Source: an uncultured Marixanthomonas sp.
GTDB taxonomy: Bacteria; Bacteroidota; Bacteroidia; Flavobacteriales; Flavobacteriaceae
DNA: 46,169 nucleotides
NCBI RefSeq assembly: GCF_963974425.1
Contig: NZ_CAXBCK010000030.1
Span: forward strand, 1-46,169
Direction: 5' to 3'
Shown here: in pieces, positions 10,657-13,252 of the stretch
How the letters are laid out: each line of letters begins with the position of its first letter
Position numbering within the stretch: position 1 is the first letter of the stretch
Made by a program: the position numbers and the translations under genes
The notes under the pieces: model-generated
What the model saw: only the letters and a program-made list of their open reading frames with translations
Database searches by the model: none
What the model was told of the DNA's origin: nothing

Positions 10657-12063
10657 TTAGTTGCGATGTCTTTTTTTTCTTTTTCTCCAAGGTGCATTTT
10701 TTTGCCAGTCACCTGCCATAATGCATCCATAGGGCAATATTTCATCTAAGACTGTTCCTAAATTATATGTTTCCATTTGTGCACGAACAGTGGAAGCAGG
10801 TTTATAGGCACTTGGTAATTCGGAAATGTCAATCTCTTTAGAGAAAAAGCGAATGTCTAAGCCTTCAGTTTCTTCTTTAAAAATGTCAAGATTGCTTCTT
10901 TCAGCTAAATTGCGTTTATGCTGAGTACGACTCATGTTGCGACCTGCGCCATGAGGGGCAAAACCTAAATTGTTTTTTGTTGTATTTCCTTCAACAATCA
11001 ATACTGGTTCAGACATATTCAATGGTATTAATCGAGGCCCGGTAATATCTGGCATAAACTTAGCATCTAATGGAGTAGCACCTTTTGCGTGGTAGAAAAT
11101 ATCACCATCTTTAAATACAAAATTATGCTCATTCCAAAATCGGTTCTCAATGTTGATATTCAACTTTTCAGCAACTCCTTCGTGAATTAACTTGTGGTTG
11201 AGTTTTGTCCACTTACGGATTGTTTGTAAGGCACTCCAATAATCTTGACCTTCTTCAGTATCAAACGGGATCCAAGCATTTTGTTTTAAAGTATTAGAAG
11301 ATAGCAATTTTCGAAATCGTTCTGCTATATTCATACCCTTTGAATACAATCTAGCTCCAGGCCCTCTTGAACCGTGATGGGTTATCATCATAGTATTTCC
11401 AGTTTTGGCTGATTTTCCAACAAATAGAAAATGATTGCCATCACCTTGCGTTCCTAAATGTTCACGAGCTATTGAAATTGATTTATTATCAAATAAAAAT
11501 TCATTACTCTTAAATTCCTCAAAGAGTTCTTCTGTCAAATTAAATTGCTGACCTCGAGGTCTTCCGCCTGGACCAAAATGTGTGCTTTTATGTGCAGCAT
11601 CTAAGACGTCTTTAGGGTTAGCCGTACCAAAATCTGTCAACATAACTGAGCAACAAATATCTGCACTATGCATCCCTGGGTGAATGGCATTTTTAGTAGC
11701 AACAACACCTCCTACCGGAATTGTGCCCAAAGGTCCAGCAGGACAGGCATCGGGCATCACAGCACCGCCTATAACTGTAGGTGTTTTCATTACTTCATCC
11801 ATGGTGGATCTCACTTTTGAGATATTTTCCTCCTCAAGTTCATTTTCGGCCATAATATTTAAACTGTAAGGTGCGGGTGTTTCTAAAAGCCCTACAGGTT
11901 CTGGAAGTCTAAATTGTTCTAAATAAGTTTCAATTTCTTCTTTAGAAAGCTCGTTGTCATTAATGTGATCAATAGCTTTTCGATACCATTTTGCCGGCGG
12001 AAATCCCATAGCTTTAATGTCGTGTCCTGTAATTTTAGTTTTCATATCTTTACTTTTTATCAT
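10657..12063 (-). CDS. rtcB: RtcB-family RNA 3'-phosphate/2',3'-cyclic phosphate ligase, with ~45-aa N-terminal extension and basic C-terminal tail
   Basis: Matches the RtcB blocks as recalled. '[22 protein letters not shown]' (PD.H.G.G.PIGGV). '[10 protein letters not shown]' (DIGCGM). '[15 protein letters not shown]' (GSGNHF). 'HHGSRGPGA' (HSGSRGLG). '[15 protein letters not shown]' (HGAGR.MSR, the His-GMP site). The C-terminus ends '[10 protein letters not shown]'. An alternative start is at 12045 (MKTKITG). Confidence 0.85.
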
Positions 12064-12220
12064 TAAGCTCCGCTACCTCCTCGTGTAGCGGAGCACTACT
12101 TAAAAAAAGGGTGATACCTAAATGTCCCTTTTTTCCATTAACAATACAAATATTTGATTATAACTGCGCAATCTTTTTGCGTAGTTTAATTTTTCTTTTA
12201 TTTTTCTCGAAAATTTACCA
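12064..12220. promoter_or_regulatory. Divergent rtcB / WYL-regulator control region with three inverted repeats
   Basis: IR1 at 12067-12094 is 'gctccgctac'-N8-'gtagcggagc', a 10-bp perfect stem starting 4 nt upstream of the rtcB ATG, with GGAGG in its loop on the rtcB strand. IR2 at 12102-12135 is 'aaaaaaaggg'-N15-'ccctttttt'. IR3 at 12164-12184 is 'ctgcgcaa'-N5-'ttgcgtag'. Confidence 0.4.
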
Positions 12221-13252
12221 ATGGCTATAACTAAAAATGCACTTATACGCTACAAAACCATAGATAAATGTCTGCAAAATAGATATCGTAAATGGGCTTT
12301 AAAAGATTTAATGCAAGCCTGTAGTGATGCTTTATATGAATTTGAGGGGCGTGATATAAATGTGAGCAAGCGGACAATACAATTAGACATACAATTGTTG
12401 CGTAGCGATAAATTAGGATATAGTGCTCCTATAGAGGTATATGACCGAAAATATTATCGATATAGTGACTTCAATTATACCATTACAGATATTCCTCTAA
12501 CGGAAAACGACATGAATGTCCTTACTGAAACAATGAACATGCTCAAACAATTTCAGGACTTTTCATTATTACAGGAGTTTAAAGGAATCATTAATAAATT
12601 GGAGGATAAAATTTTTACCGAGAAAAATAATAAGCCTGCAATTATTCATTTGGACAAAAACACAGACCTAAAAGGGTTAGAGCTGCTAGATGAACTCTAT
12701 CAAGCCATTTTAAAGAAAGTTGTTTTAAAGATCATGTATCAATCCTTCAAGGCTCAGTGTCCTTCTGAGATTATTTTTCATCCTCATTTGTTAAAAGAAT
12801 TTAATAATCGTTGGTTTTTAGTAGGTAGAAAAACGGAGAGTAGCAGAGTTCTAACGTTTGCTCTGGATAGAATCCTGGGGGTGGATTATGACTTTGAAAC
12901 AGAATACATACCTATAGGTTTTAATGCCGATTCTTATTATGAAAACACGATAGGCGTTACTGTTTTTGATCAGCAAAAACCTCAAGAATTAATTTTCAAA
13001 GTAGATAAAAAAAACGCCCCATATATTGTAACAAAACCATTCCATACTACACAAGAACTTGTTAAGGAACATCCCGATGGCAGCATAACTTTTAGTATTG
13101 AGGTGCACCATAACTATGAGTTGGAGCGCTTACTTCTTGGGTTTGGTGAAAGTCTGGAAGTATTAGCCCCTCGATTGCTCAGGAGAAATGTAAAACGAAA
13201 ACTGGAAAAGGCGGCAGGATTATATTATAAGGAAAAACCTTTAAAAATATAA
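12221..13252 (+). CDS. WYL-domain transcriptional regulator (N-terminal wHTH, central WYL domain, C-terminal WCX-like region; YafY/PafBC-like architecture)
   Basis: 343 aa. The N-terminal ~60-70 aa ('...IRYKTIDKCL...TIQLDIQLLRSDKLGYSAP') is assigned as the HTH. WYL-type block 'IMYQSFKAQCPSEIIFHPHLLKEFNNRWFLVGRKTESSRVLTFALDRI' (the RWFLVG here corresponds to the W-Y-L signature). Conserved C-terminal extension. Confidence 0.8.
   Translation: MAITKNALIRYKTIDKCLQNRYRKWALKDLMQACSDALYEFEGRDINVSKRTIQLDIQLLRSDKLGYSAPIEVYDRKYYRYSDFNYTITDIPLTENDMNVLTETMNMLKQFQDFSLLQEFKGIINKLEDKIFTEKNNKPAIIHLDKNTDLKGLELLDELYQAILKKVVLKIMYQSFKAQCPSEIIFHPHLLKEFNNRWFLVGRKTESSRVLTFALDRILGVDYDFETEYIPIGFNADSYYENTIGVTVFDQQKPQELIFKVDKKNAPYIVTKPFHTTQELVKEHPDGSITFSIEVHHNYELERLLLGFGESLEVLAPRLLRRNVKRKLEKAAGLYYKEKPLKI

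Follow-up and report, generated by a model that had tools for sequence, protein, structure and literature searches.

A stretch of DNA of 46,169 nucleotides from an uncultured Marixanthomonas sp. of the Flavobacteriaceae (contig NZ_CAXBCK010000030.1 of assembly GCF_963974425.1; the whole stretch is called here the window) carries a divergent pair of genes, one encoding a predicted RNA ligase of the RtcB family and the other a transcription regulator with winged helix-turn-helix (wHTH), WYL, and WCX domains. Together with a palindromic sequence and a structured leader RNA that lie between the genes, the pair probably constitutes a WYL-controlled module responding to RNA damage or translation stress, the minimal form of an RNA-repair island of Flavobacteriaceae (we put the probability of this interpretation at about 0.65). 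An earlier note on this DNA had proposed that the divergent pair is an RNA-damage response module in which the ligase is a target of the regulator. Both open reading frames (ORFs) are present, with matches to the Pfam families RtcB, WYL, and WCX, and the proposed link draws comparative backing from the conservation of the pair, the operator, the fold of the regulator, and the RNA-repair genes in related islands. The operator and the leader RNA go beyond what that note described and, as far as searches of databases and the literature reach, they are newly described.

The gene pair, its predicted operator, and its leader RNA

One genome per species was scanned, giving a set of 80 loci from Flavobacteriaceae or close relatives (RtcB identity 69-87%). 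In 53 of the 80 species, an orthologue of the WYL regulator is encoded upstream of rtcB on the other strand, and at about 22 loci it directly adjoins rtcB, as it does in the window. This pairing exceeds chance. The sequences flanking the pair are entirely different from one genus to another, and because both flanks vary, it is the pair that forms the conserved unit.

When the intergenic regions were aligned, a 21-bp palindrome came to light, which reads CTACGCA-N7-TGCGCAG in the sense of rtcB. It occurs once in the window, where none is expected by chance, and at 74 of the 80 loci, in one to three copies per island. All 50 of 50 WYL-containing loci carry it, and three loci are without WYL gene, palindrome, and leader all together. 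Larger islands have two or three copies, positioned some 40 bp ahead of the start of the WYL gene, before a unit of leader, tRNA, and SPFH gene, and directly before rtcB. Sixteen positions of the palindrome are conserved to more than 94%, and its A-rich spacer holds its orientation. The symmetric pair 3/19 is a noncomplementary A·C in 64% of the sites, with no compensation. Since it is the sequence that is conserved, and without compensation, the palindrome is better understood as a site for a protein than as an RNA hairpin; its classification as terminator-like by a pattern scan was rejected on the same grounds, whether as an intrinsic terminator or as a hairpin in RNA. A possible link to phage was also rejected: six IMG/VR contigs contain the exact 18-mer, in GC-rich coding contexts that have no leader, RtcB, or WYL, and these were judged to be chance matches.

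On the rtcB side of the palindrome lies the sequence AATATTTG, in which ATATTTG is conserved in the aligned units, and in 62 of 65 units 16-17 nt separate the palindrome from the G of its TTTG. The -7 consensus of Bacteroidetes is TAnnTTTG, and this is the basis for reading AATATTTG as a candidate -7 element. If the reading is correct, then the center of the palindrome would fall near position -32 of rtcB, in the place of the -33 element, and no -33-like TTTG is found at the usual spacing upstream of the AATATTTG box. On the other side, TAATTTTT may be a -7-like box of the WYL promoter (a weak inference, from sequence). Similar boxes on the WYL side, 0-5 nt from the palindrome, are found in the loci L001, L008, L013, and L023. 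Their nearness to the palindrome suggests that the WYL gene is autoregulated.

Downstream of the -7-like box of rtcB lies a leader RNA, predicted to be transcribed with the gene. In the window it consists of a first hairpin, the linker AAGUAGUG, a second hairpin, and the tail UUAAU..AAAA. Both hairpins are found in all units. Across the units, hairpin 1 has a variable stem of 6-9 bp and a loop that is mostly UUUUGGAAUC, the linker is AAGUAGYG, hairpin 2 has a GC-rich stem of 10-11 bp and the loop ACGAGGAAG, and the tail is UUAAUAAAA. RNAalifold, run on 48 distinct sequences aligned with MAFFT, recovered hairpin 2 with compensatory changes in 9 of its 10 pairs. When both helices are specified on this alignment, 93.7% of cells pair, compared with 82% in shuffled alignments and 36-54% when partners are slid. 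Changes on both sides are seen in 15 of the 17 pairs, a number reached by 0 of 500 shuffles. Because the sequences are related, the shuffle control overstates the significance; the slid controls, however, are robust, and so is the large number of distinct types of pairs. An alignment of 68 leader hits based on the covariance model, and hence biased towards structure, gave 97.1% pairing and compensatory changes in 16 of 17 pairs. Over the two alignments, slid controls pair at 35-54%.

The covariance model (R1) finds a single copy in the window and 68 copies in 67 of the 80 loci, all in the sense of rtcB and including loci outside the training set. The leader of the window has a folding z-score of -4.8. 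G-U pairs are frequent on the rtcB strand, which argues that the RNA is transcribed in the rtcB direction. No family of Rfam 15 corresponds to it, permissive thresholds included; the best hits, at 12-21 bits, fall short of the gathering scores of their families (33-92). The gene that comes right after the leader is rtcB in 38 cases, tRNA-like genes and SPFH in 22, and some other gene in 6. Since other genes often follow, the leader is not simply an element for the initiation of rtcB translation, and since it has no U-tract, it is not an intrinsic terminator. Its role might be 5' stabilization or processing, antitermination similar to that of put sites, service as a sentinel substrate, or the docking of a protein. 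Two further ideas concerning its structure were rejected. A closing helix P1, joining the 5' end with the tail in the minimum free energy fold, pairs in 74.6% of cases compared with 73.0% in shuffles (matched by 73 of 500). The two hairpins are also not a degenerate tRNA, as in L028 and L017 they precede genuine tRNA-like genes.

Positions within the window of the two genes and of the predicted elements between them
Feature	Position	Strand	Remarks
rtcB, divergent-clade 3'-phosphate/5'-OH RNA ligase (predicted)	10657..12045	-	462 aa from Met7; longest ORF to 12063, 468 aa
Structured leader RNA, transcribed with rtcB (predicted)	12055..12146	-	covariance model R1, 69.8 bits, E ~1e-10
Leader hairpin 2	12067-12094	-	10-bp stem, loop ACGAGGAG
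Leader hairpin 1	12103-12134	-	loop UUUAGGUAUC
Candidate -7 element of rtcB, AATATTTG	12147..12154	-	ATATTTG conserved in aligned units
21-bp palindromic operator, CTGCGCA-N7-TGCGTAG (+ strand)	12164..12184		common to the rtcB and WYL promoters; predicted WYL site
Candidate -7-like box of the WYL promoter, TAATTTTT	12187..12194	+	2 nt from the operator; sequence reading
wHTH-WYL-WCX transcription regulator	12221..13252	+	343 aa; Pfam WYL and WCX, PADLOC WYL, predicted fold

The ligase and the regulator

The longest rtcB ORF (10657-12063) matches the Pfam family RtcB (PF01139) with 131 bits, against a cutoff of 27. Its first ATG (12063) falls within the conserved tail of the leader RNA, which makes Met7 (ATG 12045) the probable start, in agreement with a database protein (P0001) of 462 aa that is 100% identical to RtcB of the window. 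With this start, the intergenic region comes to about 175 bp, and the 157 bp given in the earlier note must be revised.

Alignment to the RtcB proteins of P. horikoshii and T. thermophilus indicates that the catalytic motifs are intact (DICCSV, GNHF, HHGSRG, EHN, and PHGAGR). They match the metal ligands of the P. horikoshii enzyme and the GMP-accepting histidine of HGAGR (D95, C98, H203, H234, H329, and H404), and the residues for metal binding and guanylylation are invariant within the alignment of the clade. The protein predicted by AlphaFold2 (pLDDT, the predicted local distance difference test, 84.7; pTM, the predicted template modeling score, 0.87) has the fold of the family: all 16 significant matches in the PDB are RtcB proteins, with TM (template modeling) scores of 0.57-0.67. 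It is not the E. coli-type equivalog (NF007153: 87 bits against a cutoff of 407), nor is it the RtcB2/release_rtcB equivalog linked to PrfH (TIGR03073: 61 bits against a cutoff of 272). A few related loci carry, next to PrfH, a paralogue of RtcB with scores of 193 and 158 bits against NF007153 and TIGR03073. As RtcB of the window is only 28% identical to this paralogue, which scores far nearer to canonical RtcB, the two are best placed in separate clades. To judge from alignment and model, then, the protein is a genuine but divergent member of the superfamily, with catalytic residues and fold intact.

Two substitutions are specific to the clade, both outside the residues for metal binding and guanylylation and both invariant in an alignment of 28 of its RtcB sequences. 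One changes MPDxH to MPDAC (histidine to cysteine in MPDxHxGxG; window 11745-11765, residues about 97-107), the other NHFLE to NHFLF (window 11440-11455, residues about 204-209).

The protein also has additions at both ends. An N-terminal extension of about 45 residues and a basic C-terminal tail had been remarked upon earlier, and both are real, retained in 80 of 80 orthologues. The N-terminal module has the pattern ITGxDLxxLGFxxGxW...INxNxL...YLEQF and is predicted by the model to form three short helices. The tail runs for 17 residues past the canonical end, ...PYGCIMAG, and is predicted to be disordered. A resemblance of the N-terminal module to the tail domain of CCA-adding enzymes was considered and found to be unsupported, the best profile match to a PDB sequence having an E-value of 0.57 and Pfam giving no match.

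Beyond the stop codon of rtcB by about 120 nt is a GGG...CCC hairpin flanked by A/T (10514-10536), and just past the upstream gene (one for a protein of the type IX secretion system, T9SS) is a perfect 14-bp palindrome, ATAAGCCCACGCTA/TAGCGTGGGCTTAT (10291-10320). Both are likely terminators, as read from the sequence. Two flanking terminators would make the unit of leader and rtcB monocistronic.

The regulator matches the Pfam families WYL (PF13280, 48 bits) and WCX (PF25583, 56 bits) and the WYL model of PADLOC (91 bits). Its domains are a wHTH (residues 1 to about 81), a helical linker (95-136), WYL (154-221), and WCX (255-332). By sequence alone, the N-terminal HTH is weak (HTH_11, E 0.012), but the AlphaFold2 model (pLDDT 77.8) has helices at residues 5-19, 27-42, and 50-61, followed by a beta hairpin, or wing, at 71-81. 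The top 32 matches of the model found by Foldseek in the PDB are all regulators of the family, including DriD (4e-14), PafBC, BrxR, CapW, and WYL1, an accessory protein of Cas13d. E-values range from 1e-14 to 1e-11 for the activators DriD and PafBC and from about 1e-7 to 1e-6 for BrxR and CapW, and the alignment with DriD extends over the full length of the protein (about 350 columns). A sequence search is consistent with the assignment to this family. The predicted structure thus gives the WYL protein the full architecture of DriD, PafBC, BrxR, and CapW. Orthologues are common across Flavobacteriaceae. The residues of the WYL motif are conserved, a conservation that does not separate an ssDNA (single-stranded DNA) ligand from an RNA ligand.

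Some orthologues of the regulator are longer, at about 573 aa, because roughly 235 aa are added at the C-terminus, forming a further domain with a match to 2-oxoglutarate/Fe(II) dioxygenases of the PhyH type (PF05721). They are found at L017, L022, L025, L026, L029, L033, L040, L063, L067, and L070. It is possible, going by the domain match, that the fusion joins a transcription factor that senses nucleic acids to a modifying or demodifying enzyme.

Extended islands in related genomes and the surroundings of the pair

In some genera, 2-5 kb separate the WYL gene from rtcB, and the gap is filled by genes running in the direction of rtcB and of types concerned with RNA repair or translation rescue. 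The inserts include a small TPR protein (44 loci), an SPFH/Band-7 protein (23 loci), PrfH (13 loci; TIGR03072, 222 bits against a cutoff of 167), and RlaP nucleotidyltransferases, which come in pairs (13 loci). Other inserts are a calcineurin-like phosphoesterase, DUF458 (RNaseH-like), DUF434/DUF5616, an Rnl2-like RNA ligase, and R2K ATP-grasp proteins. Many islands also hold either an array of 8-20 tRNA genes or a single gene resembling tRNA-Tyr(GTA) or tRNA-Pro(TGG). Because relatives insert repair and rescue genes and tRNAs between the same two genes, the window may be seen as holding this variable island in its minimal form, with two genes only. In keeping with this, the window itself has no tRNA gene and no Rfam family at the gathering threshold, and the earlier claim that it lacks RtcA, archease, Ro/TROVE, and PrfH stands: none was found among the ORFs of at least 100 aa, to which statements on absent domains in the window apply.

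Several features of the RNA genes in these islands deserve mention. The tRNA arrays run in the same direction as rtcB (L016, 3558-5868; L019, 2672-4739; L030, 1555-3457; and also L032, L034, L037, L049, and L057), and the island tRNA genes are reminiscent of the stress-induced "L-arrays" of cyanobacteria. The lone gene similar to tRNA-Tyr(GTA) or tRNA-Pro(TGG) recurs at many loci between the leader RNA and SPFH, and some of the Pro-like genes lie barely above the Rfam threshold for tRNA (33-37 bits). From the tRNA-like gene to the start of SPFH, about 20 loci have some 680-990 nt with no ORF of at least 55 aa and no Rfam match (for example, L022, 4058-4737), and this gap may be a further non-coding element of the island. 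In extended islands, copies of the Flavo-1 RNA motif (RF01705) are found in the stretch that separates SPFH from rtcB, on the other strand, at L022 (5868-5943), L027 (5779-5850 and 9773-9844), and L040 (5589-5671); the window has no copy of it.

In the window, facing the regulator on the minus strand (13261-14016), with its end 8 bp from the WYL stop codon, is a gene for a 251-aa protein with an XRE-type HTH and a C-terminal half weakly similar to UmuD/S24 peptidases, a candidate repressor of the LexA/CI kind. Beyond it is an apparent operon on the plus strand (14283-23287) encoding CesT_Tir_1 (131 aa), PspA/IM30 (240 aa), a membrane protein of 238 aa, a coiled-coil protein of 688 aa without a Pfam match, and a protein of 1639 aa with DUF3686, DUF7902, and an AAA ATPase domain. 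From its domains, this operon looks like a membrane-stress system unrelated to the rtcB-WYL pair. The XRE-S24, CesT_Tir_1, and PspA genes are beside rtcB at none of the 80 loci, and all three were rejected as parts of the module, since they are not conserved with the pair. On the other side of rtcB (3656-10267, plus strand) are two genes whose very large, secreted products (874 and 1318 aa) have repeated internal modules, GEVED domains, and a sorting tail for type IX secretion. More proteins with T9SS tails are encoded at 24798-27773, 32941-35247, and 36328-37836. Finally, six consecutive ORFs on the plus strand at 38289-43914 (861, 217, 117, 136, 294, and 182 aa) have no Pfam match at E <=0.001.

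Signal, direction of control, and known systems

How might such a locus work? A homodimeric WYL factor similar to DriD would bind the palindrome, centered about 32 nt upstream of the start site of rtcB, and because the same palindrome lies just upstream of the -7-like box of the WYL gene, autoregulation is probable. A nucleic-acid fragment that accumulates under stress would bind the WYL domain, and transcription of the leader (about 90 nt) and of rtcB would then be switched on. In larger islands, the other units marked by the operator would be switched in like manner by the ligand-bound factor. RtcB would go on to reseal RNAs with 2',3'-cyclic-phosphate or 3'-phosphate ends and 5'-OH ends, tRNAs or rRNA being the most plausible.

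Control is most likely by activation, as with DriD and PafBC, because the operator takes the place of the -33 element at fixed spacing and because the nearest structures are those of activators. The WYL protein may instead be a repressor of the CapW/BrxR type, with the palindrome occluding both divergent promoters until a ligand removes the protein. Towards the WYL gene, the operator is indeed within 0-5 nt of the -7-like box, a position typical of repressors. CapW and BrxR act in this way, by repression that a ligand releases, on operons divergent from or adjacent to them (PMC11662680), and the analogous regulator in Anabaena, TrcR, is a repressor. De-repression of this sort is an alternative to be taken seriously, though a less likely one: towards rtcB, the site stands in for the -33 element, just as in DriD-activated promoters lacking a -35 element, and DriD and PafBC come ahead of BrxR and CapW among the structural matches.

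The choice of RNA damage or translational stress as the signal derives from the gene content of the islands. The same wiring could serve a different signal, DNA damage or phage, if the WYL protein senses ssDNA and RtcB repairs collateral cuts in RNA or seals the 3'-phosphate ends of DNA. E. coli RtcB can reportedly join 3'-phosphate and 5'-OH ends of DNA, a finding said to be that of Das and colleagues in 2013. DriD is the nearest structural match of the WYL protein, the characterized homologues of this architecture bind ssDNA (PMC11662680, PMC9186387), and the rtcBA operon of Salmonella is reported to be induced in the SOS response via prophage genes (PMC9879122). Nonetheless, the content of the islands is overwhelmingly that of RNA and translation (tRNA arrays, PrfH, RlaP, Rnl2-like ligase), with no DNA-repair gene linked to them among the 80 loci, and the LexA-like XRE-S24 gene that adjoins the pair in the window is not conserved with it. 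A signal from DNA thus seems rather improbable. It is far less credible still that the adjacency has no regulatory meaning, the order of genes being inherited within a family and the palindrome being a terminator, a repeat, or the site of another factor. All 80 loci are indeed from Flavobacteriaceae or close relatives, and there was the terminator-like verdict of the pattern scan. But WYL gene, palindrome, leader, and rtcB persist despite changed flanks, even with 2-5 kb of inserted genes, and the palindrome is unique in the window, lies upstream of a promoter box, and is conserved in sequence rather than structure.

Several considerations weigh against a WYL-controlled response to RNA damage. 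No WYL gene lies within 6 kb at 27 of the 80 loci, though in several of these the island outruns the flank that was fetched. The operator sites were gathered by similarity search, so their conservation is in part by construction, and shared ancestry feeds into all the counts, as the loci come from one family. The promoter elements and transcription start sites derive from consensus reading, and with regard to binding, expression, and activity alike, the locus is known here from sequences and predicted structures. As to the ligand, all characterized wHTH-WYL-WCX regulators sense ssDNA, apart from one that senses cyclic di-GMP (PMC11662680, PMC9186387), and a signal derived from RNA would therefore be without precedent in this architecture. 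DriD binds single-stranded RNA weakly, owing to clashes with the 2'-OH, and CapW binds none (PMC9186387, PMC11662680).

A bolder possibility, and a doubtful one, is that the WYL protein is the first wHTH-WYL-WCX factor to sense damaged RNA (fragments with 2',3'-cyclic-phosphate or 3'-phosphate ends) and that the leader is a new class of RNA within the circuit of sensing and control. The leader could then be a sentinel substrate whose products feed back on the WYL domain. Or perhaps it could be a docking site for the basic tail of RtcB, or an element, similar to put, that permits read-through of long operons of tRNA and repair genes.

The sensing of RNA damage and the induction of RNA repair in bacteria are little understood beyond the systems of sigma54 and RtcR and one cyanobacterial repressor. 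The locus in the window offers a compact system in which to test them, made up of a single regulator, operator, leader RNA, and ligase, and related islands link the same control elements to tRNA arrays, to ribosome rescue by PrfH, and to RlaP. It would tell whether WYL domains, which in this architecture have so far been sensors of ssDNA, also read RNA damage. The leader is an RNA motif supported by covariation and new to Rfam, and the consensus of the operator permits a regulon to be predicted in any genome of Flavobacteriaceae. A search of the literature found no report of the regulation of rtcB by a WYL protein and no experiments on a WYL-RtcB pair.

Among known systems, DriD of Caulobacter crescentus and PafBC of mycobacteria share with the WYL protein the wHTH-WYL-WCX architecture and fold. 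The site of DriD, ATACGAC-N7-GTCGTAT, extends over the place where a -35 element is lacking, and the promoter of driD is bidirectional (PMC13004042); the predicted operator described here is likewise a 21-bp 7-N7-7 pseudo-palindrome with a TACG core at the position of a missing -35/-33 element, and the regulator gene is likewise at a bidirectional promoter. The systems differ in that sequence identity is only 14-19%, that the predicted targets comprise an RNA ligase, joined in relatives by tRNAs and ribosome-rescue factors, instead of DNA-damage genes, that the promoters of the host are of the Bacteroidetes type, and that some orthologues bear the PhyH-type dioxygenase domain.

In its proposed working, the locus resembles RtcR-RtcBA of E. 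coli and Salmonella, where rtcB is also beside a divergent, dedicated regulator with a domain for sensing nucleic acids (in the window, a predicted one). The CARF domain of RtcR is reported to sense tRNA fragments with 2',3'-cyclic-phosphate ends (PMC7790460). The window, however, has no sigma54 activator, CARF domain, or RtcA, its RtcB is of a different clade, and it has a structured leader RNA. Given the three absences and the different clade, the locus is best regarded as a functional analogue of RtcR-RtcBA and not as a member of that system. A second analogue is found in Anabaena sp. PCC 7120, where the TrcR regulon, a response to translational stress, brings rtcB, a slipin gene, and an array of tRNA genes under one shared operator (PMC10272220, PMC8421152). 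The extended flavobacterial islands have the same set of genes (tRNA array, rtcB, slipin/SPFH) with one regulator and a shared operator. In Anabaena, though, the regulator is a ribbon-helix-helix repressor with dispersed targets, whereas here a WYL protein has that role and its predicted targets lie in a cluster, with rtcB the only one of the set in the window.

Two further comparisons concern the islands more than the window. As in the RtcB2-PrfH module of ribosome rescue and repair, PrfH is present in 13 related islands, under the same operator system, and Flavobacteriia have a PrfH-CT subfamily of their own (PMC12829566). PrfH is absent from the window, and the RtcB encoded there is of the clade distant from the PrfH-adjacent paralogue. 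Rsr(Ro)/Y-RNA-RtcB operons, by their features, are not represented, the window having neither the TROVE domain nor an Rfam match within the scope given above. A survey of 2016 by Burroughs and Aravind is said to have described RtcB together with RlaP, SPFH, a phosphoesterase, and tRNA-like RNA. The RlaP, SPFH/Band-7, phosphoesterase, and tRNA-like genes of the islands agree with this RNA-repair "syntax" as conveyed by papers that cite it (PMC12776372, PMC7824862). The locus is not a categorically new system but an extension of known kinds.

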